64,000 nucleotides of DNA from Escherichia coli (GTDB lineage: Bacteria; Pseudomonadota; Gammaproteobacteria; Enterobacterales; Enterobacteriaceae): assembly GCF_030013595.1 (NCBI RefSeq), contig NZ_CP122768.1. One strand, given 5' to 3'. Positions within the stretch are counted from its first letter, which is position 1. Every line of letters starts with the position of its first letter. This document shows positions 30,798 through 61,035 of the stretch, piece after piece. The position numbers and the translations under genes were made by a program. The notes beneath the pieces are model-generated. The model had not been told where the DNA came from. It made no database searches and worked only from the letters and a program-made list of their open reading frames with translations.

Positions 30798-30846
30798 GAT
30801 AAAATCCTTACAGAAAATCGGTGAATGATAGTTTAACGATGACGAG

Positions 30847-31494: not shown

Positions 31495-31512
31495 CAGAAT
31501 CCCCTTTCTGAT

Positions 31513-31734
31513 TCAGTTCAGGGTGACGCTCATCAGCCGGACATACGGGCCAAAACTGTCCTTACGGCGTTCTGCAAACACAGCCAGCACACCGGGAATA
31601 TCCTGCACTTCACGACCGGTATACGCCTCAGCACTGCCGTGCCAGCGGTACTTACCGGTGCAGAACGGAAAAAGACGGGATGCCGGATGCTGACGGTGAA
31701 TGCGCATGGCTTCACCACGGGTGATAATTTTCAT
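31513..31734 (-). CDS. YeeT/YkfH/YpjJ-family protein (DUF987)
   Basis: 73 aa MKIITRGEAMRIHRQHPASRLFPFCTGKYRWHGSAEAYTGREVQDIPGVLAVFAERRKDS... Confidence 0.7.
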   Translation of the reverse strand: MKIITRGEAMRIHRQHPASRLFPFCTGKYRWHGSAEAYTGREVQDIPGVLAVFAERRKDSFGPYVRLMSVTLN

Positions 31735-31802
31735 AATGGGATACCTCTGAAGACAGAAGATAAAAGTGAAAACAGGTGTGATGTGGTTGTGACGGTGACG
31801 GG

Positions 31803-32294: not shown

Positions 32295-32780
32295 TCAGTC
32301 GATGATGCGCATAATGGCGCTGCATTCCGGATGCTGCAGGGCATAATCCCGCAGCCGGTAATAATGGACCGTCATGGCATAACACTCCGTACGACAGGCA
32401 TGATGACTGTACGTCATCAGACAGGCAGCAATGCCGGCGGCTTCCGGGCTCATTTCAGCGCGGTTACCGTTCATGACATTGAACAGTACCCATGTTTCGT
32501 CATCATCGTCATCCGGTTCGGGGGCCATAAATGCCCCGCCGTTGTTCAGGGTGTACAGATTCCAGATACCACCGCAGTAGTCTTCACACAGACGGTCCAT
32601 CCAGCCGAAGACACGGGGCTCCAGGGTCACCCACTGTGGAATAAGGCCAAAATGTTGCGGCCAGAAGCTGATGCGCTGTTCATCAGGGACGAGAGTAGCA
32701 ACCAGCTGAGGTGGGTTATTCCCTGATGCAGCGGTTACGGAAACAGAAGGTGTGGTGGAATTATGCGTAACGGTTGTCAT
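32295..32780 (-). CDS. Antirestriction protein (KlcA/ArdB-like; YafX/YfjX family)
   Basis: 161 aa with acidic stretch PEPDDDDDETW and conserved position next to radC-like gene. Confidence 0.7.
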   Translation of the reverse strand: MTTVTHNSTTPSVSVTAASGNNPPQLVATLVPDEQRISFWPQHFGLIPQWVTLEPRVFGWMDRLCEDYCGGIWNLYTLNNGGAFMAPEPDDDDDETWVLFNVMNGNRAEMSPEAAGIAACLMTYSHHACRTECYAMTVHYYRLRDYALQHPECSAIMRIID

Positions 32781-32871
32781 GAGATTATTCCTTATAAAAA
32801 GTAAATGAATGGAAGAATGTCCGGAGGCAGGGACGGAAGTGAGTCAGGACTGCGCTTTCAGGGAAAAGGCA

Positions 32872-33690
32872 TCAGCGCATGCTCTCCAGCAGCGTTTCTG
32901 CCATCACCCACAATGCGCGATTGAGCTTAATGTCGGTGTCGATGCTGTGAATGGCCCGGGTGTGGATACGTTTTCCTCTGGCACTGCGACCGGAAATTCC
33001 GCCTTTCAGCATATTCTCCTGGATGGTCTGATATGCGCTCCACAGGTCCTTGCCGTAATCCTCCCTGCGTCGTGGTGTCAGAATGTCAGCAGTGGTGACG
33101 GGCTGATGTTCGTCACCATAACGGTAAGTCAGTGCCGCCTGCGCCAGTGCCTGGCGTGCCGGTGGCGGCAGGACCAGCGACTGCATGGCATCACGTTTCT
33201 CCTCAATCCGGTCAAACACGCCCACCACTTCGTAAGCCCCTTCAATAACTTTCTCCACCACGTTTCCCCGGTGCGGAACACGCACTTCCCCCAGAGACTG
33301 ACCACAGACGCAGCCGTTCTGGCAGACGAATCTGAAGTAACCCGGCAGCATCTGGTAGCTGGAGGTACCGTCATGGGAGTTGAGCAGAATAATTTCAGGG
33401 ACATGTTGTCCGGTTATCTCCCCGTCACGCCGCAGACGCAGCATGTGTTTTGTGTATTCCCGGCGACCCGGGTCACGCACACGTGTCTGGCAGGCGAAGA
33501 ATGGCTGAAAGCCTTCCCGCTGCAGACTTTCCAGTACGGTGATGGTGGGAATGTACGCATAGCGTTCACTGCGGGAGGTATGCCGGTCTTCTCCAAAAAT
33601 ACTGGGAACATAGTGCATCAGCTCTTCATGTGTCAGTGGACGTTCACGGCGTATCTGGTTTGTATAACCAAAACGACTGGCTAATCGCAT
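32872..33690 (-). CDS. DUF932-family protein (YafZ/YfjQ-like)
   Basis: 272 aa; family assignment from remembered similarity to CP4 prophage proteins. Confidence 0.65.
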   Translation of the reverse strand: MRLASRFGYTNQIRRERPLTHEELMHYVPSIFGEDRHTSRSERYAYIPTITVLESLQREGFQPFFACQTRVRDPGRREYTKHMLRLRRDGEITGQHVPEIILLNSHDGTSSYQMLPGYFRFVCQNGCVCGQSLGEVRVPHRGNVVEKVIEGAYEVVGVFDRIEEKRDAMQSLVLPPPARQALAQAALTYRYGDEHQPVTTADILTPRRREDYGKDLWSAYQTIQENMLKGGISGRSARGKRIHTRAIHSIDTDIKLNRALWVMAETLLESMR

Positions 33691-34100
33691 AATTGCTCCT
33701 TATGAATGATTAAGCGGTATAAATGAAAAAACCGCGTCTCCCGGAGAAGACGCGGCCTGATGGGTGAAATGAATGAGGTTTATTGTCCGGGAAGCCCTTC
33801 ACTGGTGAGCCACGCATTAAGTTGTTTGCCTGCATAGGGTTCAGAATTCCGGCAGCGCCAGCGTCGCTGACCTTCCGCGTTGCGGATAATCCGCCGGAAA
33901 TGCATTCCTGGATAAACACATTGCGGTAAGCTGTTATGACAGCAACTGTCTGTTTGCGTGAGAAAGGATCTTCGGAAAATAAAAGTAATGTACAGCCCGT
34001 CATGTATTTTCAGGTAAAAATAAAGCCCCTGCCATTATGGCAGAGGATTTATTTACATTTGATATTAATAACGCGCAGATAAGATACTATAATTCATACA

Positions 34101-36036: not shown

Positions 36037-37107
36037 TTATTTAATCCGGGCCATCGCGTTTCTCAGTGCCGAATCTGCACCTTCAGTTATCTCCTGGCTT
36101 TTCTGTAATACCGCCTCTGACCGGGTCAGTGCCTGACGCGCCGCCAGTGGTTTCCGGATATGCTCCATCGTCAGCATCGTGTCCTCGTAGCCCTGCTGAC
36201 GCCAGGCGTCGATATGTGCCGACGTGAAACTGAGCAGACCGCCACTGTTGCCACCATCACCTGCATGTTTCAGCCTTTTCCGGGGACGGATTTCAAGGAT
36301 TGTGGTGTCCGGAAAAGCCCGACGATCCCATAAAGAACCGTCACTCAGATGCGTCACAATCACCATATTGCATCCGGCATCCACCAGTGGCGTCACGGGA
36401 GTATTCCCCTGCCTGTTTCGCCATCCGCCCATCCCACCATCACCGTACATTGTTCCCTGAACCTCGCGGGGACGGAACAGCAGAGGCAGCGCGGCTGACG
36501 CCAGTAAAGCTTCTTTCTGCTGCCCGCGGGGCAGACTCTGGATATGCTGAAAAACGGCGTTTTTCGTGGTTCCGGCACCCAGTTCAGCACGAATGCAGTC
36601 AATAATATCCTGCATGCCTCCTTCTGTGGGGTACAGCGACACGTACAGCGGTAGCCCGTCAGCCAGAGCATCTGTATCAAGATAATGATCCATCAGCGCT
36701 GTCAGGGGCTCATCTGACAACAGCGGCTGAATCATCGGATTGTCGAACCCGTTGATTGTCGATATATGGCGAAAAAGCGTCGTAAGCAGTGCGCCCGCAC
36801 GTCCGGGGATCTGGCAGAGGTTCATGGCCTGAACCAGTTTTTTCAGCAATGAAAAGTAAACCGATCTGTTTACCGACAGAACCTGATTATTCCCCAGATG
36901 ATCCCAGAGCGCCTCCAGGCGTAAGGTGGCTTCTGACAGATCGGGAGAGGCCGCGATAATGGCACCATTGAGAGCCCCGATACTGGCTCCTGAGACCATA
37001 CTGATCTGTGCGCCGCACTCTGCCAGTGCCTTAACCACCCCCGCCTGATAAGCGCCCACCGCTCCGCCGCCGGACAGCACCAGCCCCGTTTGCATTTCTG
37101 TACTCAT
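36037..37107 (-). CDS. Patatin-like phospholipase
   Basis: GGGAVGAYQAG oxyanion motif, GASIG serine-lipase motif (GxSxG), YGDGG Asp motif; start overlaps upstream gene stop by 4 bp. Confidence 0.8.
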   Translation of the reverse strand: MSTEMQTGLVLSGGGAVGAYQAGVVKALAECGAQISMVSGASIGALNGAIIAASPDLSEATLRLEALWDHLGNNQVLSVNRSVYFSLLKKLVQAMNLCQIPGRAGALLTTLFRHISTINGFDNPMIQPLLSDEPLTALMDHYLDTDALADGLPLYVSLYPTEGGMQDIIDCIRAELGAGTTKNAVFQHIQSLPRGQQKEALLASAALPLLFRPREVQGTMYGDGGMGGWRNRQGNTPVTPLVDAGCNMVIVTHLSDGSLWDRRAFPDTTILEIRPRKRLKHAGDGGNSGGLLSFTSAHIDAWRQQGYEDTMLTMEHIRKPLAARQALTRSEAVLQKSQEITEGADSALRNAMARIK

Positions 37108-38009
37108 GCCTCTCCCTTCTGAAATATTTCATCAACCATACTTTCAGAGAGGCGTTCTGCAGAGCAGAGACGGGGCATACGAACCGGTAAGTGTTCTGCA
37201 GCCTGCGTGGTTGACCAGATCACAGGATGCCGCTCTTCACTGCACCAGTCCCCCAGCCAGTTAACCGCTTCATGCCATTCGTTATCAGCCTGTTCCCGGC
37301 GCTGACCACCAAGCCAGTCCAGTGTGTTCAGACGTACTGTTGCGCTACCGCCACTCTCCCGTGCCATCTGCGTTAATGCTTTATATCTGAGAATATCCAG
37401 TAACTGATTAACCTGGCCTGTTTCACCCTGACGAATCACATCACCAAACGCGCCCCAGCGAAGCTCTTCAAGCGCCACATAACAACGTCCGGCAGGGGAA
37501 AATGACGCGTATCGCCCGGCGCTCCACCACGAGAATATCTGCTCAAGATGTAACTGTGCCCGCTGAACCTGGTCAACACGGTGGAGTTTTTCCTCAAGAT
37601 GATTCAGTTTCTGATGAACCTGTTCTGCCAGAGTGAGTAACTGCTCCCGCGTGTCAGCCGAATAATGCGCCAGCCTGGCAGTATCACTGACCAGTGAACT
37701 GACCCTGTCGTTTACCCGGGTAATCGCGTAGTTTGTGGTGGCAAGTGACGTTGTCAGCTCCGTCAGCCAGCGCAGGGACGCCTCAACGCCCTGTGCAAGC
37801 GACGCATTGATGGCATTCTGCCGTGCAGCGCCTTCGCCGGTCAGCCCCTCTTTTAAACGCCGGAAGAACGTGCGCTCTCCGGCCGTGCGGATATGCTCCT
37901 GTGCAACATCGATTCCGTTTGCGAAATCAACCACAAATTTTTCAGGAAGACAGGTGAGTACCTGACATACCCGGTTATCAGCAATTTGTTGAATAAATGG
38001 TGAAGTCAC
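37104..38009 (-). CDS. Hypothetical protein (301 aa) between dynamin-like GTPase and patatin genes
   Basis: ORF overlaps both neighbours by 4 bp (ATGA), implying a coupled operon; no motif recognised. Confidence 0.6.
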   Translation of the reverse strand: MTSPFIQQIADNRVCQVLTCLPEKFVVDFANGIDVAQEHIRTAGERTFFRRLKEGLTGEGAARQNAINASLAQGVEASLRWLTELTTSLATTNYAITRVNDRVSSLVSDTARLAHYSADTREQLLTLAEQVHQKLNHLEEKLHRVDQVQRAQLHLEQIFSWWSAGRYASFSPAGRCYVALEELRWGAFGDVIRQGETGQVNQLLDILRYKALTQMARESGGSATVRLNTLDWLGGQRREQADNEWHEAVNWLGDWCSEERHPVIWSTTQAAEHLPVRMPRLCSAERLSESMVDEIFQKGEA

Positions 38010-40393
38010 AGCATTGTCTCCAGCTCTTCCCTCAGCGCCTTACTGTCAGTAATGAGCTCAGGAACCCTTTCATTTAATGCCTGAAGTCGCCCGGTAAGCC
38101 GTTCCTGCGCCTGCTGATCGCGTTTATGATCTTCAGAGCTCTGAATCAGCGTGTTACGCAGTTGTTCAACTTTCTCCCTGAATGCGCAGAAAAAGGCATC
38201 GATTTCCTGGCGGACGGGCTGGTTAATATCCTGCTCAATGGATGCCTGCAGCTCCCCGAAATATGCCCGGGTCAGTGACATAACTTCCTCTCTGGCCTTG
38301 TTGATATTGATCACGCTGCGACTCACATCCTCGTCATAGTTTTCCCAGCCCAGGTCACTGGTGCCAAACCATCGACAAACGGTTCCCCATACGCCACTCT
38401 GCCGACGGCGACGGGTGACGGTCTCCGTTCTTTCCTCCATAAGCGCACTCAGATTTATTTTTACCGCGAGCCGGGTCTGTAACTGGCTGACTGCCGGAAA
38501 ACTGATTTTTACGGTAAAGCCCTCATCCTCCAGGCGGGCATTGATGCGACCGGCAATGTTTTCTGTGGCGTACAGGGCCGTGCCACGAAAACCTGTTTCA
38601 ATCCCGCTGACGATTTTCTCCAGCTCAGGCCGGAACTGTGCTTCAGCCTCACGGTGCAGGCTGGTCACGGTCGATTCGATTTGCGTCATCAGTTCAAGGG
38701 CTGCCCTGCGATCACTGAATTTTATTTCGGGGCTGTCCGGATCAAAGTCCCGCATCCTGTCATGCTGATTTCCGGTTCCGAAAATATCGTGAAAGAAAGC
38801 GAATGCGTTTCTCTCCCGGGGCTGCGCTGAATTTTCTTCCTCCAGCATTTGCTGTTCTTTGCGTTTACCGCTTCTGAAATAGTCGTTCAGCTCCTCCTCC
38901 AGTGAGGCACAGACCTTCGTCAGTAATTCCCCGGTTTTGGTATTGATGTCCTCCATGGCCATTCTGACATCACCGGTCACCTGATTCTGACATTCCTCAA
39001 TCTCCTGGATATCCGCCAGCAGGCTGGTAATATGCGCCTGTAGTGACTGAATGCTTTGCTGCAGCCCCTGATGACGTAATGACAGATATTCGCTGACATT
39101 TTCTGCATTCTGCATCAGTTTTGCGGCGGCAGAGTCAACCGCCAGTGCCGCCGCTCTGGAATGGGAGCTCTGTATGACTTCCGTTATCAGTTGATCGATC
39201 AGAGATATATTCCAGAGTTTTTCTGCCTTTTTATTTACCTTAGTGCTGTCTTTCCAGTCGTCCTCTTCCACCATAGGTCCGAAAGCTTCCCTGATAAAAT
39301 CATCGACCCAGGCTTCATCAACCGGAAGCGCACCGTTTTTTCGTAACTCATGAAGCGCACGGTTAGCCAGGTACGCCTGACGTGATGAGCCGGGATAAAC
39401 GCGGGAGGCGGGCAGCACATCGCTGTTCAGCATTGCTGGCACCTTCTGGCGTACGGCATCCGCACCATCACCATTGCGATCTTTTTCATCGAATTTATTG
39501 ACCAGCACAAACAGACGACCGGCTGAGACGTCAGCAATGGCATTAAGCTCTTTACGAACCTCCTCATCGGCTTTCGAGTTCATCTGGGTGTAATCCATCA
39601 CCGCCAGCACCGCAGAGGCTTTCTGTAGTTGATCCCGCATCATCATTTCCATCTGTGGTTGTCCGGCTTCATTAGGGCCGGGGGTATCCAGCAGTGTGAG
39701 TGTTCCCTGACATGCATCCATTCCCACCAGGTGGCTGAACGCCACGTCGATCACCGGTAGTTTCTGCACTTCTGCGTATTCGTCAAAAGGAAATTCAGTC
39801 CCCATTGCCGCAGCAAGACGAACCAGGTCATTTAACGATGCCAGTCCGGTAAAGATTTCGTCTTCCCCGTGGTATTCATTTTTAAGCCAGACATCATCCG
39901 CCAGAATATCCAGTAGTTCGCGGGTATCCCCGGTTTGCTGCAGGGACTGTGCGACTTGCTGCCCTGCCGGGGTGGCGAGTTTTTCCTGCAGTGTGATTAA
40001 TAAATTGCGGACGGGCTGAATATGTTCCAGATGGAGGACCGGTTCCGTTTTTCCGGGAACGTGGCGGATCAATGTCGGTACCGAGGTCATGGGGCGGTTA
40101 CGGTTGGGCAGAATTTCCTGCCCCACAATGGCGTTGATGGTGGTTGATTTGCCCGCCTTCATCGTGCCGACCACAGCCAGCACCATCTCCCTGCGGGCGG
40201 TTTTGATTTGTTCGCCCTCCAGCTCCTCAATTCTTTTCAGCGCTTTCCGTTTATCAAAAAGCAGCCCGTTTTCGTTCTTACTGTCAGATAACACATCCGG
40301 CTCATCAACCATTTGCCGGAGCAGATTGATATTCAGTTGCAAAAGCCGGTCGGCTTCATCACAAAGCAGGGCGATGTTCTTTTCGTGCATCAT
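38006..40393 (-). CDS. Dynamin-family large GTPase (bacterial dynamin-like protein)
   Basis: 795 aa; N-terminal G-domain with P-loop GTMKAGKSTTINAIVG, DTPG-like G3 (LLDTPGPNE), long coiled-coil-like C-terminal region. Confidence 0.75.
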   Translation of the reverse strand: MMHEKNIALLCDEADRLLQLNINLLRQMVDEPDVLSDSKNENGLLFDKRKALKRIEELEGEQIKTARREMVLAVVGTMKAGKSTTINAIVGQEILPNRNRPMTSVPTLIRHVPGKTEPVLHLEHIQPVRNLLITLQEKLATPAGQQVAQSLQQTGDTRELLDILADDVWLKNEYHGEDEIFTGLASLNDLVRLAAAMGTEFPFDEYAEVQKLPVIDVAFSHLVGMDACQGTLTLLDTPGPNEAGQPQMEMMMRDQLQKASAVLAVMDYTQMNSKADEEVRKELNAIADVSAGRLFVLVNKFDEKDRNGDGADAVRQKVPAMLNSDVLPASRVYPGSSRQAYLANRALHELRKNGALPVDEAWVDDFIREAFGPMVEEDDWKDSTKVNKKAEKLWNISLIDQLITEVIQSSHSRAAALAVDSAAAKLMQNAENVSEYLSLRHQGLQQSIQSLQAHITSLLADIQEIEECQNQVTGDVRMAMEDINTKTGELLTKVCASLEEELNDYFRSGKRKEQQMLEEENSAQPRERNAFAFFHDIFGTGNQHDRMRDFDPDSPEIKFSDRRAALELMTQIESTVTSLHREAEAQFRPELEKIVSGIETGFRGTALYATENIAGRINARLEDEGFTVKISFPAVSQLQTRLAVKINLSALMEERTETVTRRRRQSGVWGTVCRWFGTSDLGWENYDEDVSRSVININKAREEVMSLTRAYFGELQASIEQDINQPVRQEIDAFFCAFREKVEQLRNTLIQSSEDHKRDQQAQERLTGRLQALNERVPELITDSKALREELETML

Positions 40394-40500
40394 TCACCTT
40401 TATAAATTCAATAATTCAGAACTGCGGTGAACAGCAATGAGCGTCCTTTCCCATTACTGCATGAATTTTCCTGAAATCGTATTTCCGGGATACCGTATAA

Positions 40501-43350
40501 TCAGAAAGTCATATTCAGCGTAGCCTGACCGTTATAGCCTTCAGCGCTGCTGCCGCTGACGCTGTGGGCATAACCGGCCTGAACGCCCAGGGTGATATTT
40601 TCCCGGATACGGGCTTCCAGTCCGGCCTGCAGGTCCAGTGACGTGCCATTCCGGGACGGTGAGAACGTCATGTTACTGCCGGCTGCGGCTGTCCCCATGC
40701 TCATGTCACCCCGGGAGCTGAAGGTGCGGATAACAGAAGGCTGTACCCACCAGTTCACCGGCAGTTCACTCACACTGTGTTTTGCACTGTCGCGCAGGGT
40801 GTCACGGGATGAGGTGCCTTCACCAAAGGTCATATCGTTGTGGCTGCCCAGACGGAAACCGGCACGCACATGTTGTGCACTGCCATGCCCGAACTTCACA
40901 TAACCGGCGTTATCCTGGCCGTCATCCAGGGAGAGTCCCTGCCAGGTGTACTGCAGTTGTGGCTCCAGCATCAGATTGTCAGTGATACTGAAGGGCAGAC
41001 CGGTTTCCAGTGAGCCCAGCCAGCCCCAGCCCCGGGCGCGGAAGTCGTTATTGTCCGATGACGCTTTCATGCTGTGACGGGTTCCCTGGGCCACAATGTC
41101 AGCCCACAGGCCGGAGGATGTGTGTACCAGATTCAGGTATCCGCCCAGACTGCCGGCATCATCCCGGACCGTGCCGGCGCGGGAACCGTCATCATCCTTA
41201 ACATCAACGGAAGAATGGCCTGCAGCACCATACACCCCTGTCGTCAGAGACATACCGGCAACCTCTGTTCTGAGCAGGTCACCCTCCAGACGGACGAAGC
41301 CATAGCTGCCGCTGCTTTCCGGCGTGGCTCCACGGGCAATACCGCCGTTGTTATCGTGACCGAGATGACCGCCCTGAATGCTGAGACGGACGCTGTTATT
41401 TTCACCGTTTACACCGGTCTGATGGCTGCGGGAGCCTGCCAGAATCCGGTCATAGTCCATTGCCTGTGTCAACATGGATGTATACAGGGGGACTTCAGCA
41501 CGATAAGCATTTTCACTGCGCAGGTACCAGTCTTCATCGCTGTCACGGTTCAGGGTGTAGTTAAAGGCGCCGGCCTGAAGCGGGCGACTCAGGGCAAACG
41601 CACCTTCTTCTGTGGTGGCGCCATTCTGTGCATCCACAACCCGGATACCCTGTCCGGTGGTTGCCACCCCGAGGTTGCTGTTTCCGACATTTGTAAACGC
41701 AAGCCAGGTTTTGCCGGTTGCCTGACCACCATTAATCACCAGCTGGTCAGAGGCATTGCTGCCATCAAGGCGAACACGCATATTGATGGTGCCGCCCTGG
41801 CCGGTGAGGTTCGTGGTGGTCAGTTTATGGAACGTTACCGGGGAGTTACTTTTTGCAACAGCACGGCTCAGCGCGGCATTCGGTGTCGTCTGATTATCAA
41901 AGCGAATCTCCCCTGCGTTAACAATATCGCCGGTACTGACCACATCACCATTCAGTACCATACTGGCGCCTTTACTGAGCTGTGTTCTGCCACTCAGACT
42001 TCCCCCGGCAGCCAGCGTCAGTGTTCCACGATGTCCGACAGTGGTGTTGCCAGCCTGTCCCCCGGCATTAACCGTAAAGCTGCCGCCATTTTCCAGCAGC
42101 AGGCCGCTGGCCTGACCGGATGTGCCATCAATACTGAACTTACCGCTGGCATTGGTCCCCTCAACAGTGGCACCACTGTCTGCAATCAGGGCACCACCGG
42201 ATGTTATGGTGACACTTGTCGCCTTACCGCCGGCAGACACTGCCAGGGTACCGCCGTCATCCACTAGGGTATTCTGTGCTGAATGGCTCTCCAGTACATC
42301 CAGACGACCGCCGGATTCCAGAACAACACCGTCAGCCTTACCGTTTTCCACCGTGAAATTCCCCAGACGGTTTGTGCCGATGACAGTTGCAGCAGTACTG
42401 GTAACCAGTGCACCGCCCGTGTTCTGGGTGACTGCAGTGGCTTCCCCGCCGGCATGTACCCTCAGTTCACCGTTCTGATTTATGGTGGTGTTACCGGCAG
42501 CGCCACCTGCCTTAACAACCTGCCAGCCCCCCTCGTTAATTACCGTGTTCAGCGCAAGTCCGTCCCTGTGCACATACTGGTAACCGCCATTCAGTGTGGT
42601 ATTCAGGGCCCTTCCGTGTACCGACTGGTCACCACCTGCGTAAATGAGAGTGTCACGGGCTAGCCCGGAAAATAAGATAATCTGCCGTCCATTTTTGTTG
42701 ATGGTGGTGGATTCTGCTGTTCCCTGGACCTTCTGACCCGTATACGAGTTGTCAGAATCAGGGCCGCCTTCTGCGCCGGTGTTGATGATGGTTCCTGTTG
42801 CCAGCCCGCCACTTTTAACGCTCTGGTAACCGTCGCGGTTGATAATTGTACCGGTGGCAACCCCGCCCTCATGCACCCACTGCTCGCCTCTGTTATTCAG
42901 TGTGGTGTTCACCGCCAGTCCGTTCAGGCTCTGTCCCCCGCCGTCACGAATAACCGTATCACTGGCTGTTCCCCCCTCCAGCACGACCTGACGACCATTT
43001 GTGGTGACAGTGGTGTTTCCGGCTATCCCGCCATTCTGTATCCATTGCCCACCGGTGTTTTCTTCACTGTCCGGCCCCAGTTCCAGCCCGGTACTGATGG
43101 TCATTCCGTTGGCCGTACCGAAGACAATCTGGTTGTCATGATTTGTCAGTGTTCCATCGTTCACGGTTTCTCCCGCCTGTACAACCTTGTCAGCAGCCAG
43201 TGCCGGGACTGATGTGACAGCAGCAAGAGACAGCGCAACCGCCACACCGGCGCGTTTTCCCCGTGAGCGGGCCAGTTCGGAAGCCACCACCAGGGTGCCC
43301 GTAATGTGATTCCATACCAGCCTGTAGCTGGTGTTCAGATGTCGTTTCAT
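40501..43350 (-). CDS. flu: Antigen 43-type self-associating autotransporter adhesin (AIDA-I family)
   Basis: Extended signal peptide MKRHLNTSYRLVWNHITGTLVVASELA..., Gly/Thr-rich beta-helical repeats, C-terminal beta-barrel ending ...QATLNMTF. Confidence 0.85.
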   Translation of the reverse strand: MKRHLNTSYRLVWNHITGTLVVASELARSRGKRAGVAVALSLAAVTSVPALAADKVVQAGETVNDGTLTNHDNQIVFGTANGMTISTGLELGPDSEENTGGQWIQNGGIAGNTTVTTNGRQVVLEGGTASDTVIRDGGGQSLNGLAVNTTLNNRGEQWVHEGGVATGTIINRDGYQSVKSGGLATGTIINTGAEGGPDSDNSYTGQKVQGTAESTTINKNGRQIILFSGLARDTLIYAGGDQSVHGRALNTTLNGGYQYVHRDGLALNTVINEGGWQVVKAGGAAGNTTINQNGELRVHAGGEATAVTQNTGGALVTSTAATVIGTNRLGNFTVENGKADGVVLESGGRLDVLESHSAQNTLVDDGGTLAVSAGGKATSVTITSGGALIADSGATVEGTNASGKFSIDGTSGQASGLLLENGGSFTVNAGGQAGNTTVGHRGTLTLAAGGSLSGRTQLSKGASMVLNGDVVSTGDIVNAGEIRFDNQTTPNAALSRAVAKSNSPVTFHKLTTTNLTGQGGTINMRVRLDGSNASDQLVINGGQATGKTWLAFTNVGNSNLGVATTGQGIRVVDAQNGATTEEGAFALSRPLQAGAFNYTLNRDSDEDWYLRSENAYRAEVPLYTSMLTQAMDYDRILAGSRSHQTGVNGENNSVRLSIQGGHLGHDNNGGIARGATPESSGSYGFVRLEGDLLRTEVAGMSLTTGVYGAAGHSSVDVKDDDGSRAGTVRDDAGSLGGYLNLVHTSSGLWADIVAQGTRHSMKASSDNNDFRARGWGWLGSLETGLPFSITDNLMLEPQLQYTWQGLSLDDGQDNAGYVKFGHGSAQHVRAGFRLGSHNDMTFGEGTSSRDTLRDSAKHSVSELPVNWWVQPSVIRTFSSRGDMSMGTAAAGSNMTFSPSRNGTSLDLQAGLEARIRENITLGVQAGYAHSVSGSSAEGYNGQATLNMTF

Positions 43351-43567
43351 CAGCTTTTCCTTACAGAGTGTGAATAAAAAAGCCGGTACCCACAAAAGTG
43401 GATACCGGCAGGTACAAAACAGCATGGTCAGATAAAGTGGTTTTTCCCGGACATAAATGCTTCCCCTCTCTCATCCGCCAGAGAAGTATCAGTCCGTTGT
43501 GTGCAATTCCGTTATGCATGATGAAGAGATTCAGCTGCCTTTTCGCAGACCATTAACCACTATAAAC

Positions 43568-43603
43568 GATCGATGGAAACGATCGATACCTGTTTTATCG
43601 ATC
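43568..43603. promoter_or_regulatory. Three closely spaced GATC sites upstream of Ag43 gene (Dam/OxyR phase-variation switch candidate)
   Basis: aacGATCgatggaaacGATCgatacctgttttatcGATCg; agn43 phase variation is known to use three GATC sites in the OxyR operator. Confidence 0.55.
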
Positions 43604-43721
43604 GTTTTATTCTATTAACAGCAAGGCAGTCACGCAAGAGAAAGAGGTGGATATGAGGGGGGTGTATCATGTTTTCAGTTGGTTAACGCAATGTAATCAG
43701 GCATTTCCCCTGGCAGACTGT

Positions 43722-44594
43722 TCAGAAGAAAATCCAGTTCCATACAGCGCGGGCAACAGAGACCACCGTGTCACGGACGGCACGCAGAACTGTGCGTGCA
43801 ACAGAGGCAACACAGACGCTCTCCACCGTGTCAAATATCCGGTCCACCGCACCGGTAAACTGTTCACGGGCCTGCCCCCGGACAGATTCCGTGCACAGCT
43901 CGTCCTGCAGGCGGGTCATCAGGGGACTGGCGGCATGGTCGGGAAGCGCTGTCATGAGCGCACTGACCAGCGTATCCAGTTCCCAGCCGGTACGGGCCGA
44001 TACGGCAACAACCGGATGTACGGGCCGGAACAGCCGGAATACCGCATCTGTTTTTTCGCGAATGTTCTGTTCCTGTGCGGGAGAAGGCTGAATACCTGCC
44101 ATATCCCATTCATGGCAGGGCTCTGTTTTGTCGGCCTGCGTCACCACAAACAGCACCTGCTGATGTCCCCGGTGCAGTATGTGTCGCCAGAAATACTCAT
44201 CCACAGACAGGGCACGGTCATCGGCTTTAATCAGCCACAGCACCAGGTCCAGTTCAGGCAGAATGTCACGGTACAGGGCTTCATACTCTGCATCCCTGTC
44301 CCGGCTCTCGCCCACCCCGGGCAGGTCAGTGATAACCATGCTGTGACCATGGCCACTCAGACGGAAGCGCCGCACTTCCCGGGTGCCGGCGTGAACATCA
44401 CTGACCGGGGTGACCTCCCCCTGAAACAGTGCATTACAGAGTGAGGATTTACCGGCCCCGCTTTTACCCATAATGCCAATCACGGGTTCGTGACTGGTGA
44501 GTTTGCGCAGATGTTCCAGGATGTGACGGGAAAGCGAGTAAGGCAGGGAGGAGAGCGGTTTTTCAATTGCCTCAATGGCATCAGACGGATTCAT
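43722..44594 (-). CDS. YeeP/YkfA/YfjP-family GTPase
   Basis: P-loop GIMGKSGAGKSSLCNALF; conserved position upstream of Ag43 gene as in CP4-44. Confidence 0.75.
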   Translation of the reverse strand: MNPSDAIEAIEKPLSSLPYSLSRHILEHLRKLTSHEPVIGIMGKSGAGKSSLCNALFQGEVTPVSDVHAGTREVRRFRLSGHGHSMVITDLPGVGESRDRDAEYEALYRDILPELDLVLWLIKADDRALSVDEYFWRHILHRGHQQVLFVVTQADKTEPCHEWDMAGIQPSPAQEQNIREKTDAVFRLFRPVHPVVAVSARTGWELDTLVSALMTALPDHAASPLMTRLQDELCTESVRGQAREQFTGAVDRIFDTVESVCVASVARTVLRAVRDTVVSVARAVWNWIFF

Positions 44595-44820: not shown

Positions 44821-45471
44821 ATGAATGCACGAAAAGCGGTACTGGCAGACAATCCGGAATTGATCCTGCGTGTGCTACAGCTGAGATTTGACGAGTCACT
44901 GTCGTACCCGCGCATTTCTGCGCAGACCGGTGTCAGCAAAACCGCCATTTTTTCTCTGGTGAGGCGATTTCACCAGGTATTCACTGACTGGCCTCTTTCC
45001 GGTGAATATTCCTGCGGGCAACTGGCCCGGGCTCTTTTCCCGGGGCGATACCCTTCAGCCCCGACCGTGACTCAGCCTGTGAAAGCAGAGAAACCCCGCC
45101 GGAACCGATTTTCACCGGAGTTTAAATGGAGACTGGTTCAGCAAACTCTTTTACCCGGTGCCTGTGTCGCACAAATAGCTCGAGAGAATGGAATTAACGA
45201 TAACCTGCTCTTTAACTGGCGGCATCTCTGGCGTAACGGTGGCCTGCAACCGCCCGGCGAACATGAAACATCGCTACTTCCCGTGACGTTAACTCCGGAG
45301 CCGGATAATAAAATCCCGGCACCAGTGCAGATACCTGAACAGATAAATACACTGCCAGACAGTCTGTGCTGCGAGCTGGTTCTGCCGGCCGGAACTCTCA
45401 GGCTGAAAGGTGAACTGACACCGGCGTTATTACAGACACTTATCCGCGAAATGAAAGGGAGCAGCCACTGA
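44821..45471 (+). CDS. IS66-family OrfA-like protein with ~90-aa N-terminal extension
   Basis: C-terminal two thirds (...RRNRFSPEFKWRLVQQTLLPGACVAQIARENGINDNLLFNWR...) resembles IS66 OrfA; N-terminal part does not. Confidence 0.55.
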   Translation: MNARKAVLADNPELILRVLQLRFDESLSYPRISAQTGVSKTAIFSLVRRFHQVFTDWPLSGEYSCGQLARALFPGRYPSAPTVTQPVKAEKPRRNRFSPEFKWRLVQQTLLPGACVAQIARENGINDNLLFNWRHLWRNGGLQPPGEHETSLLPVTLTPEPDNKIPAPVQIPEQINTLPDSLCCELVLPAGTLRLKGELTPALLQTLIREMKGSSH

Positions 45472-45818
45472 TGATATCTCTCCCTGCCGGTTCGCGTATC
45501 TGGCTGGTTGCCGGTATCACCGATATGCGAAATGGCTTTAACGGCCTGGCCTCAAAAGTTCAGAACGTCCTGAAGGATGACCCGTTCTCCGGGCATCTGT
45601 TCATCTTCCGCGGACGCCGGGGTGACCAGATAAAAGTGCTGTGGGCTGACAGTGACGGACTGTGCCTCTTCACCAAACGCCTGGAGCGGGGCCGCTTCGT
45701 CTGGCCGGTCACCCGCGATGGAAAGGTTCACCTTACTCCGGCTCAGTTGTCCATGCTTCTCGAAGGCATCGACTGGAAGCACCCGAAACGAACGGAACGC
45801 GCTGGCATCCGCATATAA
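45471..45818 (+). CDS. IS66-family accessory protein TnpB (Orf2)
   Basis: MISLPAGSRIWLVAGITDMRNGFNGLASKVQNVLKDDPFSGHLFIFRGRRGDQIKVLWAD... typical IS66 Orf2. Confidence 0.8.
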   Translation: MISLPAGSRIWLVAGITDMRNGFNGLASKVQNVLKDDPFSGHLFIFRGRRGDQIKVLWADSDGLCLFTKRLERGRFVWPVTRDGKVHLTPAQLSMLLEGIDWKHPKRTERAGIRI

Positions 45819-45837
45819 CCCGTTGTAAAGTGAGGAT

Positions 45838-47409
45838 ATGGACACCTCACTTGCTCATGAGAATGCCCGCCTGCGGGCACTGTTGCAGACGCAACAGGAC
45901 ACCATCCGCCAGATGGCGAAATACAACCGCCTGCTCTCACAGCGGGTGGCGGCTTATGCTTCCGAAATCAACCGGCTGAAGGCGCTGGTTGCGAAACTGC
46001 AGCGCATGCAGTTCGGTAAAAGCTCAGAAAAACTTCGCGCTAAAACCGAACGGCAGATACAGGAAGCCCAGGAGCGAATCAGCGCACTTCAGGAAGAAAT
46101 GGCGGAAACGCTGGATGAGCAATATGACCCGGTACTGCCATCCGCCCTGCGCCAGTCTTCAGCCCGTAAGCCGTTACCGGCCTCACTTCCCCGTGAAACC
46201 CGGGTCATCCGGCCGGAAGAGGAATGCTGCCCGGCCTGTGGTGGTGACCTCAGTCCTCTGGGGTGTGATGTGTCAGAGCAACTGGAGCTTATCAGCAGCG
46301 CCTTTAAGGTTATCGAAACACAACGTCCGAAACTGGCCTGTTGCCGGTGCGACCATATCGTGCAGGCAACAGTACCTTCAAAACCCATTGCACGCAGTTA
46401 TGCCGGAGCGGGGCTTCTGGCCCATGTTGTTACCGGGAAATATGCAGACCATCTGCCGTTATACCGCCAGTCAGAAATATACCGTCGCCAGGGCGTGGAG
46501 CTGAGCCGCGCCACGCTGGGGCGCTGGACAGGTGCCGTTGCTGAACTGCTGGAGCCGCTGTATGACGTCCTGCGCCAGTATGTGCTGATGCCCGGTAAAG
46601 TCCATGCGGATGATATCCCCGTTCCGGTCCAGGAGCCGGGCAGTGGTAAAACAAGAACTGCCCGGCTGTGGGTCTATGTCCGTGATGACCGTAACGCCGG
46701 TTCACAGATGCCCCCGGCGGTCTGGTTCGCGTACAGCCCGGACCGGAAAGGTATCCATCCACAGAATCACCTGGCCGGTTACAGCGGTGTGCTTCAGGCA
46801 GATGCTTACGGTGGTTACCGGGCGTTATACGAATCCGGCAGAATAACGGAAGCCGCGTGTATGGCCCATGCCCGGAGAAAAATCCACGATGTGCATGCAA
46901 GAGTGCCAACCGACATCACCACGGAAGCCCTGCAGCGTATCGGTGAACTGTATGTCATCGAGGCAGAAGTCCGGGGATGTTCAGCAGAACAGCGTCTGGC
47001 AGCAAGAAAAGCCAGAGCGGCTCCACTGATGCAGTCACTGTATGACTGGATACAGGAACAGATGAAAACACTGTCGCGTCACTCGGATACGGCAAAAGCG
47101 TTCGCATACCTGCTGAAACAGTGGGAGGCCCTGAACGTGTACTGCAGTAATGGCTGGGTGGAAATCGACAACAACATCGCAGAGAACGCCTTACGGGGAG
47201 TGGCCGTAGGCCGGAAAAACTGGCTCTTCGCGGGTTCCGACAGCGGTGGCGAACATGCGGCGGTGTTGTACTCGCTGATCGGCACATGCCGTCTGAACAA
47301 TGTGGAACCAGAAAAATGGCTGCGTTACGTCATTGAGCATATCCAGGATTGGCCGGCAAACCGGGTACGCGATCTGTTGCCCTGGAAAGTTGATCTGACC
47401 TCTCAGTAA
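45838..47409 (+). CDS. IS66-family transposase TnpC
   Basis: 523 aa with leucine-zipper N-terminus, CxxC...CxxC zinc-finger-like motif (CPACGG...CCRC) and DDE-like core. Confidence 0.85.
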
Positions 47410-47952
47410 ATATCAATACGGTTCTGGCGAGCCGCTTACAATTATTGCCCCCCCCAAAGGAGATGATTTCATGTATAATTGTGGTGAATCATATTCAGAA
47501 TACGACATATCATTATCTGACGATGAAAACTATGACGATGACTATTATCGTGAACGCCCGTGTCCGGGAGAAGTTTTCGGCTATGATAATACTGAGGATA
47601 ATGATGAGGCGGCATCTGATTATGCATTAAAAATAAATGAAAACTCTGATTAATACGGGGGTAGCTGATAATAAGACAATCAATGACAGATATTAATGAA
47701 TAAACATAATCAGGCGCTCAATACTTGGTTTAATCTGGGCGCCTGATTAAAATCTGAGGAAACATATAATAATTTTCATCAAAATAGTATTTATGTACTA
47801 ACTAAGCTGGATTTGAACCTCTATTTCTGGGTATTTGTTATCACTTAATCCATTACTGCTCCTCCTTCAGCATATGTCGTATCCGTTGAAGGATTTACGC
47901 ATATCGGTAACGTCGGCAACGAGCCAGATGCGGGTACCTGACGGGAGTGAGA

Positions 47953-48378
47953 TCATCGTCCCCTCCCGGTCAGTTCACGGATCAACAGCGTGAGCAGCTC
48001 TGGCGATGGATTTTCCAGCGTCATGTTACCGTGACGGAACTCCACCTTGCAGGAGCCGGCACTGACACTGGTCTGAGTGGAAGTGGATAAAGACGGCGCA
48101 ATGGCCGCCACCGGTTCTTTCTGCTCATCCGGCGTTATTTCTACAGGTAATAATTCAACGCCAGTGTCAGAAGAGGTCGTTACCTGAAGACGCCGTGATA
48201 TACGCCCTTCGTTCTGCCAGAGCCTGAGCCATTTGAACAGGAGGTTATCATTGATATCGTGTTCCCGGGCAATACGGGCAACAGAGGCTCCTGGTTGTGA
48301 TGCCAGTTCCACCATACGAAGTTTGAATTCATTCGAATAGTTTTTACGAGGTTCTTTTCGCCAGTCCTGTAATTCCAT
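47953..48378 (-). CDS. IS66-family OrfA (orphan; no cognate orfB/orfC downstream)
   Basis: MELQDWRKEPRKNYSNEFKLRMVELASQPGASVARIAREHDINDNLLFKWLRLWQNEG... Confidence 0.7.
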   Translation of the reverse strand: MELQDWRKEPRKNYSNEFKLRMVELASQPGASVARIAREHDINDNLLFKWLRLWQNEGRISRRLQVTTSSDTGVELLPVEITPDEQKEPVAAIAPSLSTSTQTSVSAGSCKVEFRHGNMTLENPSPELLTLLIRELTGRGR

Positions 48379-48431: not shown

Positions 48432-48680
48432 ATGGCTACATACGGCGGTCAGTTTACGCTTACTGACAACGCGATGGCGGAGAGCATCAATGGTCTTTAC
48501 AAAGCGGAGGTAATACACCGTAAGAGCTGGAAAAACCGTGCAGAAGTGGAACTGGCCACACTCACGTGGGTGGACTGGTATAACAATCGACGATTGCTGG
48601 AAAGGCTGGGCCATACTCCTCCGGCAGAAGCAGAAAAAGCTTATTATGCTTCCATCGGAAACGATGATCTGGCAGCCTGA
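48432..48680 (+). pseudogene. C-terminal fragment of an IS3-family transposase (OrfB integrase core tail)
   Basis: ...AESINGLYKAEVIHRKSWKNRAEVELATLTWVDWYNNRRLLERLGHTPPAEAE... Confidence 0.5.
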
Positions 48681-49062
48681 GTTCACAGATAAAACACTCT
48701 CCAGGAAACCCGGGGCGGTTCAAACCTGATTCTGGAAAAGGACTTTGTGGATTGTTGCTATTGCCAGTGAGATTGAATGAAGTCGTTTTAACTCGCTTTG
48801 AATACGTCTTGCCCCCAGATTTCGCTGAGAACGTAACTCCAGAATCAGAGCGACTTCGCAAGTGCCGGTTTTCGTTGATGGTGAACGCTTGGGGCGACGG
48901 CTGTGGCTTTCCAGACCAGCGATGCCCTGAGCCAGATATCTGCGCCACCATTTTACGCAATGTGGGCCGAGAAATGCCACAGCGACGGCATACAAATCCC
49001 GCATCACCGGACGTTTCATAGAGTTTTACCCACTGTAGCCGCTGCTGAATTTCCCTGTTCAT
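48562..49062 (-). pseudogene. Frameshifted N-terminal fragment of a transposase (HTH region)
   Basis: MNREIQQRLQWVKLYETSGDAGFVCRRCGISRPTLRKW-like N-terminus, overlapping alternative-frame ORF 48720..49019; family not assigned with confidence. Confidence 0.4.
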
Positions 49063-49412
49063 AATTTGGCATTAGTTCAGCTCAATCCCGACTTAAAAAG
49101 TCCCTACAGGATGTTCCGGACCTGAGGCACAGTTCATATCCTTATCCATAAAAAATTTAGCTATGTCTATAGCATTAATCTTGACAAGACGACGTTAGGG
49201 CCTGGCGATGAATCATTTCCCCTGCCAGATATCCTTTGGGGTGCACCAGAACTACCGTTTTATATCTATATAACTGAAACGTCCCTCGCCATCCTTCATA
49301 TTTTGATGTAGTAACACCATTCACTTTCATCTACCCCCCGTTTTATTAACATATAGTAAAAATCACCTCGCCGCATTTTATTCTTTTGAAGTAAAATCAT
49401 TTACCAGTTCAC

Positions 49413-50021
49413 TTAAAGCTCTCTTTTGTTCATCATCATACAGAGATTGAATCCGGAATTTAATCTCTTCTGCAACCAGTCTTGCATCGGGCTCATAAAA
49501 TAATTTGTTATTCGCTGTTTCTGATGTTCAGGCTGGTCTTCCATATTTCGTAAAACCAGATGAAATAATATATCATAAAGTGCGCAATGCCATGAATAAC
49601 CATCATTGGTTAAAATAAGCTCCCAAACCCGCTCCTGCTCGGCAATAAGCTGCAGAACAAAGGACTCAACCTGTTCTGTTTGTTCGGGGGCAACACGGTA
49701 TAGCGGAGCAATCACAGCAAAAGATAGTTCATTTAACCAGGATTCCGCTTCCTTCTCGCTCCTGAACGGTGGACAGTTTTGTATTCTTCGTTCGTATTCA
49801 CGGGTAATCTGCTCCAGAATATCCTCCGGCGGTGTCAGCCACTTATTCCTGAGCAATACACTGGTTGATGGATGACAGCTGGCTATTTCAGCAATAATTT
49901 CACGTAATGTCTCCGGGCTGAACTTCTTCAGCTGATTGTAGTGCTCCCGGGTAAAACCATGTTCATCGCATAAAAGTTGCCATGTCATTGATATACTGTT
50001 TGCCATTCCTTGCTTCATCAT
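49413..50021 (-). CDS. Hypothetical protein (202 aa) downstream of PerC-like gene
   Basis: ORF in same orientation and tight spacing with 50042..52245 cluster. Confidence 0.45.
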   Translation of the reverse strand: MMKQGMANSISMTWQLLCDEHGFTREHYNQLKKFSPETLREIIAEIASCHPSTSVLLRNKWLTPPEDILEQITREYERRIQNCPPFRSEKEAESWLNELSFAVIAPLYRVAPEQTEQVESFVLQLIAEQERVWELILTNDGYSWHCALYDILFHLVLRNMEDQPEHQKQRITNYFMSPMQDWLQKRLNSGFNLCMMMNKREL

Positions 50022-50041
50022 TAATACCTGTTACCTGAATA

Positions 50042-50350
50042 TCAACAGACCGGTGTACCTTTTCTGAATACCTCCCCGGACGGAGTGGCAATCCCCATTC
50101 GCCTCAGCGTGGCATCTGCAGCTTTCGCCACCTCGCTGATATCCAGCGTTTCAGGTAGCGGCGGGGACGATATCTGCGCCAGACAATAATTCCGGCGCAA
50201 CAACAACCACTCCCGTTGTGCTTCTGTACATTCAACATTTCCCATAACAAAAAGCCAGCGGTCAGAAGCTCTGCGCCAGCAACCAGCAGCCTCCAGTTTC
50301 TGCGCAACCATGTCTTCCACAACTTCCGGGGTACTCTTTTTCCTGCTCAA
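50042..50350 (-). CDS. PerC/Pch-family transcriptional regulator-like protein
   Basis: ...LEAAGCWRRASDRWLFVMGNVECTEAQREWLLLRRNYC... resembles PerC-family core (from memory). Confidence 0.55.
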   Translation of the reverse strand: MSRKKSTPEVVEDMVAQKLEAAGCWRRASDRWLFVMGNVECTEAQREWLLLRRNYCLAQISSPPLPETLDISEVAKAADATLRRMGIATPSGEVFRKGTPVC

Positions 50351-50389
50351 AACATTAACTCACTGAAATAATATACATATCTGACGGTC

Positions 50390-51028
50390 TCAGCGAACCG
50401 TCCATGCCGGGCTGAAATCCTCTTCCTGAAACAGCTCCGTCAGCCCGCTAATCTGTTTCAATCTGAGAACTTCATCCTGGTCCATACCCAGCTCCGTACC
50501 AATGCGTTCATTCGTCCAGCCCAGGCGCGACAGGTCCCTGACAATATCAGACATTGAGGTTATCTGATGTTTGCCCCTGGCCCGGTTATGTCGGATGGTC
50601 GCAGCAATACGTGAGGCCTGTCCCTTTCTCTCCGGATTAATACAGACCACCGGCAGCCAGCCCTTCAGACGTTTTCCCGTACCTGCTTCCCTGCCCAGCA
50701 CCTGGCGATGAAAACCATCCACCACCAGGTAATGGTTCTTTTCCTCAGACACCACCACCGGTTGTGTGAAACCATCTTTCTCCAGTGACTGCTTCAGCAG
50801 TTTCTTCTCACCCGGCGCCATGACATTAGGATTGTAATCATTGGCCACCACCTCATCTGCTTTTACCCACAGCACACAGTCCACTGGCTCATGTGCAAAA
50901 GGACTGACTTCATGAAGCACTCTGCGCAGGTGATTAAGGGCCTGTATGGTCTCTTCTTCTGGTCGTTCCTGGCTGAAGTACTGACGAATCATGTTGCCAA
51001 TTATCTCCGGTGTCACAGAATCCCCCAT
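50390..51028 (-). CDS. ParB/Srx-like nuclease-domain protein (IbrB-like)
   Basis: 212 aa, ...YNPNVMAPGEKKLLKQSLEKDGFTQPVVV...YLVVDGFHRQ... ParB-N-like motif; overlaps upstream gene by 16 bp. Confidence 0.65.
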   Translation of the reverse strand: MGDSVTPEIIGNMIRQYFSQERPEEETIQALNHLRRVLHEVSPFAHEPVDCVLWVKADEVVANDYNPNVMAPGEKKLLKQSLEKDGFTQPVVVSEEKNHYLVVDGFHRQVLGREAGTGKRLKGWLPVVCINPERKGQASRIAATIRHNRARGKHQITSMSDIVRDLSRLGWTNERIGTELGMDQDEVLRLKQISGLTELFQEEDFSPAWTVR

Positions 51029-52245
51029 TCCTTCCTCCTTTCTTTCATACGCTGCAGATAACGTTCATAGTGCCGGGGTTTGTTCGGACTGAAGGAGAGG
51101 GTCCGGTACCAGAAATCATTCTTTATAAGTGTCTTACAGATACGCCGCCAGGACGGAATATCCCGGCTCCCCAGGTCATTCTCCTGTTCATCCGGGATGT
51201 CATCCGGGAAGCCCCGCGTCTGATACCAGCGCAGGTAGACAGCAATTTTATTACGGTAATGTTCTGCCGTTCTTTCCGGCATCACATCCAGCAGGAACAT
51301 CGCATAGCTGCGCCAGGTATGATGGGCTGGTTTTGATATACGTTTACGCAGGGCAAAATAGGCACCGCTTTCATTGGCATAAAGCGCCCCGCTGGCAGCG
51401 CCTGACACCCGCTCACACATCCTGGCCCAGGTTTCCGGCTCCAGAACATGGTAAAGCCACAGCCCCTTACGTTGTTCAGGACCAAAAGGTTCACAGACAC
51501 GCATGTTGCGTAACGGCACGTCGGCACGGTACATCAGGTCATACAGAGGATTGTAAATGGCACAAGCTCTGGCGTTATATATCCAGATATCGCGGGCTTT
51601 CCAGTCATACAACGGATACATGGTGTAATAAAACCCTTCAGGCGATGCCGTGGTCCAGGGCTTATCATCGGCATATCTCAGTTTGCGCTGAGACACCAGC
51701 CCCATAAAGCGATTGAGGGATTCATCCGCACGAACACCGGTCAGCACTGCCACTCCACACCGGTTACCGGCAAACCAGGAAGAAAATGCCGGAACAAATT
51801 CTTCAAACGTCATGGCATACCGGAAAAAGGGAAAATATGTCATATCCGTAATGGCCTCTTCCGGTGGCTGGCGAACCCAGGTCACTCCTGGCTCCCAGCA
51901 TATCCACTCCGGCTGAAACTGCGAGACGCCGTTTACCGTGGTCAGGGGAAGTGCCACCCAGTAAAAGGTTTCCGTCACATCATGGTACATTTCCCGCATC
52001 TTCTGAATATGTTCAATGGTGCACCGATACTGGGCCTCCCAGTCAATGAACAGAACAGAGAAATGACGTTTTCTCCTGCGGGCCACCTCTGCCACAAGAT
52101 GGAAAAGCACGGTGGAATCCTTTCCACCTGAAAAAGACAGACATACCGACGGAAATGTTTCAAAAATCCACTCAATGCGGGCGATTGCAGCACGCAAAAC
52201 ATTTTCTCCGGTAAGGATTTTTTCGGTTAAAAGCGTATCACTCAT
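51013..52245 (-). CDS. PAPS-reductase-like PP-loop ATPase domain protein (IbrA-like); start at ATG 52245 with AGGAAA RBS
   Basis: PP-loop SFSGGKDS; large C-terminal extension; paired with ParB-like gene. Confidence 0.65.
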   Translation of the reverse strand: MSDTLLTEKILTGENVLRAAIARIEWIFETFPSVCLSFSGGKDSTVLFHLVAEVARRRKRHFSVLFIDWEAQYRCTIEHIQKMREMYHDVTETFYWVALPLTTVNGVSQFQPEWICWEPGVTWVRQPPEEAITDMTYFPFFRYAMTFEEFVPAFSSWFAGNRCGVAVLTGVRADESLNRFMGLVSQRKLRYADDKPWTTASPEGFYYTMYPLYDWKARDIWIYNARACAIYNPLYDLMYRADVPLRNMRVCEPFGPEQRKGLWLYHVLEPETWARMCERVSGAASGALYANESGAYFALRKRISKPAHHTWRSYAMFLLDVMPERTAEHYRNKIAVYLRWYQTRGFPDDIPDEQENDLGSRDIPSWRRICKTLIKNDFWYRTLSFSPNKPRHYERYLQRMKERRKEWGIL

Positions 52246-52745
52246 TTTCCTGGCTTTATGTCGAATAATTCTGTTTATACATTCAGGCAAACTTCATTAA
52301 TAACTCACCGCTTTGGGGATAAATAATAACAACAAAAATCTTCAGATATTAACCTGGTTGTTGGATTTGTTATCACATCCTTTATCCACCTGCTTCTTAC
52401 TGGTAACACACCTGGAAAATCCATGCATTTTCAACATATACTATCCTTTCAACTTGTAAATAAGAAAATATGATGCAGATGGTGAACAATTCAAATATCA
52501 TTTTGCAGGAAGTATTCACTGTAATAGAATTACCCCCTGATAAAGTTTATTCACTAAGGAATTATTCAACAGAAACATTCCCTGTTAGCTTTGAGCAATA
52601 GCACTTATTTTTATATGTATCAGGAATACGTACGTTGATGTAACCAAAACAAAGAAGCCTGTGTCCATGGGGTTCGTACAATTGTGTGTGGCACATGACC
52701 AAATCAGGTTTGAGACCTCCCGCTGCAATATTTTTTATTCAGATT

Positions 52746-57580: not shown

Positions 57581-57632
57581 AACGAAATCCCTGCCGGCAA
57601 TCACACTACCTGATAGCAGCATAATCCACTTA

Positions 57633-61034: not shown

Positions 61035-61035
61035 G

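Follow-up and report, generated by a model that had tools for sequence, protein, structure and literature searches.

The 371-bp intergenic region in front of cah in the window (the whole 64,000-nucleotide stretch of Escherichia coli DNA analyzed) is very probably a long-leader allele of the agn43 Dam/OxyR epigenetic phase-variation switch and would control cah. The system is already known. It is a textbook switch in its commonest allelic form, and the locus shows no departure from what has been described. In K-12, Dam and OxyR compete for the agn43 operator, and replication produces a hemimethylated window in which the two compete anew. The gene switches at rates of ~1e-3 to 1e-2 per generation; it is locked OFF in a dam mutant, and loss of oxyR or excess Dam locks it ON (PMC13337833, PMC4872104, PMC3764049, PMC2909390). 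By homology, the operator in our strain would be differentially methylated and cah would be phase-variable. A direct test of phase variation of Cah, Ag43a, Ag43b or a long-leader allele was not found among the accessible literature. The homology places an adhesin gene of a porcine-ETEC island under standard epigenetic ON/OFF control, and Cah aggregation and biofilm formation should therefore be heterogeneous within a clone. Such heterogeneity is relevant to single-colony phenotyping and to the interpretation of methylomes. Nothing new is added to the mechanism.

The elements of the region are listed in Table 1. In the proposed switch, a sigma-70 promoter would drive transcription, with its start on the G of GATC-I (43603) or beside it. 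The three GATCs would then lie at about +1, +20 and +33, within the binding region of OxyR acting as a repressor. OxyR bound to unmethylated sites after replication would block both transcription and Dam, and the lineage would stay OFF. If Dam methylated the sites first, OxyR binding would be prevented and the lineage would be ON. Every replication would reopen the competition between Dam and OxyR, making the state heritable yet reversible. As a second layer, transcripts would have to read through the terminator-like hairpin of the 253-nt leader, and the terminated transcripts would be the IsrC/IS102 small RNA. Because the host is E. coli, dam and oxyR were assumed to be present.

Table 1. Elements of the cah regulatory region and its flanking genes, in window coordinates.
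Feature	Coordinates	Strand	Basis
YeeP-like GTPase gene, co-oriented with cah (upstream boundary)	43722..44594	-	Pfam MMR_HSR1; PGAP "GTPase family protein"
-35 hexamer, TTGCGT	43637..43632	-	Sequence read-out; 17 nt upstream of -10
Promoter spacer, 17 nt	43631..43615	-	Sequence read-out
-10 hexamer, TAGAAT	43614..43609	-	Identical in K-12; sequence read-out
Putative OxyR operator, approximate limits, -10 region to just beyond GATC-III	43560..43619	-	K-12 agn43 homology
GATC-I, Dam target	43603..43600	-	Aligns with K-12 GATC-I
GATC-II, Dam target, 19 nt after GATC-I	43584..43581	-	K-12 register, allele survey
GATC-III, Dam target, 13 nt after GATC-II	43571..43568	-	K-12 register, allele survey
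Best candidate OxyR half-site, ATCGTTTCCATCGAT, over GATC-II and GATC-III	43569..43583	-	8/10 consensus positions
Leader RNA, IsrC / Rfam IS102 family, 5' untranslated transcript of cah	43369..43605	-	RF00124
Terminator-like hairpin, 12-bp G+C-rich stem (43409..43382) followed by U6	43376..43409	-	Terminator scan, folding
Shine-Dalgarno, AAGGA, 7 nt before ATG 43350	43358..43362	-	Sequence read-out
cah, intact Ag43/Cah-family self-associating autotransporter, 949 aa	40501..43350	-	NF033177, Pfam, PGAP

The gene behind the region was identified from family models and annotation. Residues 1-949 of its product aligned with positions 1-948 of the 948 in NCBIfam NF033177 (Ag43/Cah equivalog), with a score of 1983.9 bits against a cutoff of 1200. 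Pfam domains were ESPR (from residue 6), AIDA repeats, the AC_1 autochaperone and the autotransporter beta-domain. The frame had no internal stops, and the predicted protein begins with MKRHLNT, as in K-12 flu. In NZ_CP122880, a record essentially identical to the window (100.0%), PGAP annotated the same CDS as cah, encoding the calcium-binding autotransporter Cah (WP_000820483.1). At blastn precision, 24 kb of the window matched records of porcine ETEC chromosomes, such as ETEC1716, with 100.0% identity. The gene that the putative switch would control is cah.

The earlier note had placed three GATCs at 43568, 43581 and 43600, within 36 bp, upstream of an Ag43 start. The positions were exact in the sequence read-out, and the placement was borne out, with gene and switch both on the minus strand. 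The left limit given there for the region (43426, with a gene start at 43425) was wrong. It came from the longest ORF, which opens with an ATG at 43425. Translation starts instead at the ATG at 43350, as indicated by the PGAP call, the full span of the NF033177 match, ESPR beginning at residue 6 and the AAGGA 7 nt upstream. The regulatory region is therefore 43351..43721, and its upper limit is the stop codon of the YeeP-like GTPase gene. The 30-mer around the Shine-Dalgarno sequence and the start (TAAGGAAAAGCTGATGAAACGACATCTGAA) was found exactly in at least 120 metagenome contigs. The longest ORF (40501..43425) adds 25 codons (MLFCTCRYPLLWVPAFLFTLCKEKL) to cah via the terminator hairpin, an artifact of ORF calling. 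As a gene, this 974-aa ORF was rejected: it would cross the hairpin, and it has no support from PGAP or the family models. A 52-aa leader ORF (43519..43361) was also rejected, as the alleles 111_cah and TW11681 have a 1-nt deletion within it.

The three GATCs (43568-43571, 43581-43584 and 43600-43603) lie in the intergenic region 5' of the Ag43/Cah gene, 221–253 nt upstream of its start on the minus strand. Besides them, no GATC is present between 40067 and 44862, which are themselves the nearest neighbors. All three sites read CGATCG, a hexamer with 20 occurrences in the 64-kb window. When 180 sites were placed at random, at least one triple within 36 bp appeared in 46% of trials. Taken alone, such a triple is thus within chance for the whole window. 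The cluster is meaningful because of its location and what its sites align to; it exceeds chance by place and register, not by clustering alone. A second tight GATC cluster (11063, 11074 and 11078; 11063-11081) was observed in the non-island part of the window.

The region was then compared with K-12 MG1655, in which yeeP (a pseudogene), isrC (an ncRNA) and flu follow each other in the CP4-44 prophage. The order of GTPase/yeeP, leader and autotransporter is common to both. MAFFT alignments with K-12 contained a spurious 13-nt gap in the operator, and an ungapped alignment anchored on GATC-I was used in their place. The check proposed in the earlier note was an alignment with the K-12 agn43 region. 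In this alignment GATC-I, -II and -III were all in register, with spacings of 19 and 13 nt: the window GATCs at 43603, 43584 and 43571 on the minus strand align without gaps with positions 1818, 1837 and 1850 of the compared K-12 sequence. The -10 box was identical at 6/6 positions and the next 5 nt at 5/5, and +1..+36 was identical at 26/36. Together with the IS102 leader and the Ag43/Cah gene downstream, these identities upheld the claim that the region matches the known agn43 Dam/OxyR switch. The terminator hairpin, the Shine-Dalgarno sequence and the first codons are also shared, and the best candidate OxyR half-site (half-site B) is equal except for its variable center.

The two loci differ in other parts. 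The -35 box matched K-12 at 3/6 positions (TTGCGT here, TTGTCC in K-12), the promoter spacer at 4/17, the interval between GATC-I and GATC-II at 7/15 and +37..+60 at 7/24. Downstream of GATC-III, the sequences are unrelated for ~150 nt, up to the terminator hairpin. The leader is 31 nt longer here, GATC-I being at -253 from the ATG versus -222 in K-12. The passenger is of the 949-aa Cah type here, whereas K-12 has the 1039-aa Ag43. The genes that directly follow cah on its strand (36037-40390) encode a dynamin-family protein, an RdcB-family diguanylate-cyclase regulator and a patatin-like phospholipase, whereas yeeR follows flu in K-12.

In K-12, isrC is annotated as beginning at the G of GATC-I. 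From this annotation, the transcription start of cah is predicted at the corresponding G (43603), which was kept in 96 of 97 distinct sequences from the allele survey described below. Wallecha et al. in 2002 reportedly mapped the agn43 transcription start to the G of GATC-I. A consensus promoter scan of the regulatory region found no promoter, because the -35 hexamer matches TTGACA at only 3/6 positions.

From the homology to K-12 and the conservation of the operator, we infer that OxyR binds in front of cah. The operator was scored against the 20-position Toledano-type consensus (ATAGnTnnnAnCTAT, N7, ATAGnTnnnAnCTAT; quoted in PMC2909390). In the accepted register, the score was 14/20 in K-12 and ~10/20 (hand count) in the window. 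Two other window registers scored 13/20, and scores of at least 13 occurred 26 times in the 64-kb window, indicating that the consensus does not discriminate. Consensus scoring was rejected as positive evidence, as roughly two dozen other places in the window scored as well as the operator. Half-site B (ATCGTTTCCATCGAT) agreed with 8/10 specified positions of ATAGnTnnnAnCTAT. Among 84 long-leader alleles, its variation fell on the unspecified "n" positions (43579 and 43577-43575), and the tetrads, the T and the A were conserved. The K-12 CTAT, the sole perfect OxyR quarter-site there, reads AACA in the long-leader class of the window and is among the 8/15 differences between GATC-I and GATC-II. 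The upstream half of the long-leader operator may be contacted by OxyR otherwise than in K-12.

Related switches are known in Salmonella. In gtr, the validated OxyR half-sites each contain two GATCs 13 bp apart, and methylation blocks OxyR binding (PMC2909390). A Dam/OxyR phase-variation switch also controls opvAB (PMC4856963). The cah region resembles gtr and opvAB in having two GATCs 13 bp apart within a candidate OxyR half-site. They differ in that gtr and opvAB have four GATCs in two pairs, with alternative OxyR sites upstream of the promoter and OxyR as activator or repressor, whereas the cah region has three GATCs and would have just one operator, located past the -10 box, with OxyR as a repressor only.

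The conservation of the region was examined in an allele survey. Of 5426 complete E. coli genomes, 4106 carried the 481-nt region, typically more than once (median, two places). The copies were mostly 95-99% identical to the window; K-12-type strains matched over the hairpin and start region only. The conserved 24-mer of the hairpin was not found when species-representative genomes were scanned for it. Alleles were sampled from metagenome contigs containing the start-codon 30-mer and from E. coli loci, with anchors away from the GATCs. The sample comprised 129 independent copies with enough upstream sequence, representing 97 distinct upstream sequences. Three GATCs at spacings of 19 and 13 nt were found in 121/129 copies and two GATCs in 8/129; none had fewer. 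GATC-II was the site most often lost (6/129 copies), and the losses in the eight copies were mostly at this site, by G-to-A or G-to-T changes. The genes were full-length in all six GATC-loss copies that could be followed to a stop codon, and the contigs of the remaining two ended first. All nine copies with truncated genes kept three GATCs, indicating that GATC loss is unlinked to truncation.

The distinct sequences fell into two classes, the long-leader class of the window (84/97) and a K-12-like class (13/97). K-12 is thus the minority operator type. The long-leader alleles of other E. coli, such as UMNK88, ETEC1716 and STEC strain 111, were 90-100% identical to the window over the full 481-nt region. 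Their operator core is identical, and PGAP annotated their flanking genes as GTPase family protein and as cah or Ag43/Cah family adhesin. They differ from the window by allelic changes only, which fall in the promoter spacer and in a 5-nt patch lying between GATC-II and GATC-III (TTTCC in the window; the commonest form is TTACT).

These data bear on whether the homologous region still switches. It could be that OxyR binds too weakly, that the sites are always methylated and that cah is constitutive, controlled by the leader terminator and growth conditions only. The divergence between GATC-I and GATC-II, the lost CTAT and the lower consensus score in the K-12 register all fit such a region. 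But the operator is strongly conserved in 84 distinct alleles, most copies have three GATCs, and the GATCs are kept despite strong GATC depletion in the island and their absence from the gene. Half-site B, with its 8/10 positions, varies as expected of an OxyR site, and the allele class is the majority class in E. coli. We consider a region that has stopped switching improbable.

Within the 84 long-leader alleles, conserved and variable elements alternated. The pi values were 0.008 for both the -35 and -10 boxes, 0.229 for the promoter spacer, 0.043 for the operator and 0.051 for the rest of the leader. The 5-nt patch that lies between GATC-II and GATC-III held nearly all of the operator variation. 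Two hypervariable patches (43615-43631 and 43575-43579) are therefore seen, flanked by the near-invariant -35, -10 and GATC elements. In a set of 40 alleles, pi was 0.000 for the -10 box and 0.219 for the spacer; four-fold degenerate sites in the coding sequence of the same alleles gave 0.079. The spacer excess was significant against random four-fold sites, being reached by 0.05% of samples (p 0.0005), and marginal against consecutive four-fold runs, 3% of which reached it (p 0.03). The excess may therefore reflect a mosaic block of older divergence instead of diversifying selection. The patches may serve to adjust promoter strength or switching rate, or they could be a mosaic of old haplotypes. 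In one metagenome allele, a long-class promoter (-35 and spacer) was joined to an operator and leader of the K-12 class, pointing to recombination at the conserved -10/GATC-I junction.

A further reading of these patterns is that the switch consists of modules tuned allele by allele, with invariant -35, -10 and GATC-OxyR tetrads parted by the two patches, a different OxyR placement in the long-leader class and a GATC-free coding sequence isolating the operator. The patches could set differing ON/OFF rates or promoter strengths per allele. The long-leader class, lacking the K-12 CTAT quarter-site, might position OxyR otherwise than K-12 does. The near-absence of GATC from the cah/agn43 coding sequence might keep the operator sites isolated from other Dam, SeqA and MutH targets. 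As a whole, we regard this modular tuning as unlikely. The minority status of K-12, the invariant elements with variable patches and the GATC-poor coding sequence are modestly useful by-products that could guide switching-rate experiments.

The leader was matched by Rfam RF00124 (IS102/IsrC), a family that in K-12 spans the same stretch as isrC. The alignment scored 64.3 bits (gathering score, 46; E 3.6e-9) and took in all 206 model positions (1-206). The match is full-length and includes both hairpins. It differs from the model in the center, which aligns poorly here with insertions of 41 and 64 nt, because the middle of the long-leader class is longer and divergent. The terminator hairpin, which lies shortly ahead of the ribosome-binding site, folded with a dG of -24.1 kcal/mol (z -7.4) and was near-invariant across alleles (pi 0.013). 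One loop base differs from K-12, in which the annotated isrC ends just beyond the hairpin. A stretch of the leader at 43482-43493 on the minus strand (GGCGGATGAGAG) resembles the ops element, GGCGGTAGnnTG, at 7/10 specified positions. The stretch was unconserved in 111_cah and TW11681 and missing from the K-12 leader, and the resemblance is probably due to chance. A match to mir-1827 at 46981-47043 was rejected as chance: it was far under the gathering score and inside an IS66 transposase gene.

The leader structure raises the question of whether the GATC cluster is incidental, arising by chance or as a by-product of a hairpin of CGATCG palindromes, in a region that is only an IsrC/IS102 small-RNA gene with an attenuating leader. 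The palindromes of GATC-II and GATC-III do pair as a small hairpin, both in the Rfam model and in the fold, the leader carries the strong terminator, and a triple this tight was frequent in random placements. Yet this hairpin at the 5' end has only weak folding energy (dG -10.2 kcal/mol, z -2.1), and the GATC tetranucleotides are conserved where neighboring bases vary. Register and spacing are identical to those of the experimentally defined K-12 operator, and the homologous sites of K-12 have an established mechanism (PMC2909390, PMC4872104, PMC13337833). An incidental cluster is thus very improbable.

The Dam/OxyR switch would operate in a GATC-poor environment. The cah coding sequence has 0 GATC, compared with 7.7 expected from its own trinucleotide content. 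Of 91 distinct full-length Ag43/Cah alleles, K-12 flu among them, 86 lacked GATC and five had one, where ~7.5 were expected. Measured from the ATG, the nearest flanking GATCs of the alleles were at medians of ~2.0 kb (upstream) and 3.2 kb (downstream). From ~28.9 kb onward, in the island, the window contained ~3-fold fewer GATCs than expected, and the first 28 kb had the expected density. GATC-free zones were found at 28915-33966, 40071-43567, 48670-53887, 53892-56371 and 57441-61544, where 6-19 sites were expected; several of these island zones are 4-5 kb long, with 13-19 sites expected. GATC-free regions are typical of mobile elements (PMC4659465). The GATC depletion is not specific to the switch, and the proposal that the GATC-free zone is a switch-specific insulation was weakened by the occurrence of such zones across the whole island and in mobile elements.

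The same setting suggests a third role for the cluster, mainly as a landmark for SeqA or mismatch repair (MutH) in a GATC-free island stretch and not as a transcriptional switch. The three sites are the sole GATCs in 4.8 kb, and seqA mutants of K-12 shift the Ag43 switching bias (PMC13337833). However, other GATC-free zones of 4-5 kb in the island have no such cluster. The placement at +1..+36 of a conserved promoter favors transcriptional control, and sequestration at agn43 has been assigned to OxyR rather than SeqA (PMC13337833). A landmark role of this kind is extremely improbable.

Other mobile and prophage-like components were observed in the island. Upstream of the GTPase gene, at a distance of ~230 bp, is a complete IS66-family element (tnpA, tnpB and tnpC) at 44821-47409. 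Beyond this element are a second, truncated copy of IS66 (47882-48378) and other IS remnants. At 30000-33700, a CP4-44-like module encodes a CbtA toxin, a YeeU-family antitoxin, DUF987, a JAB/RadC-like protein, an antirestriction protein and DUF932. This module lies in one of the GATC-free zones.
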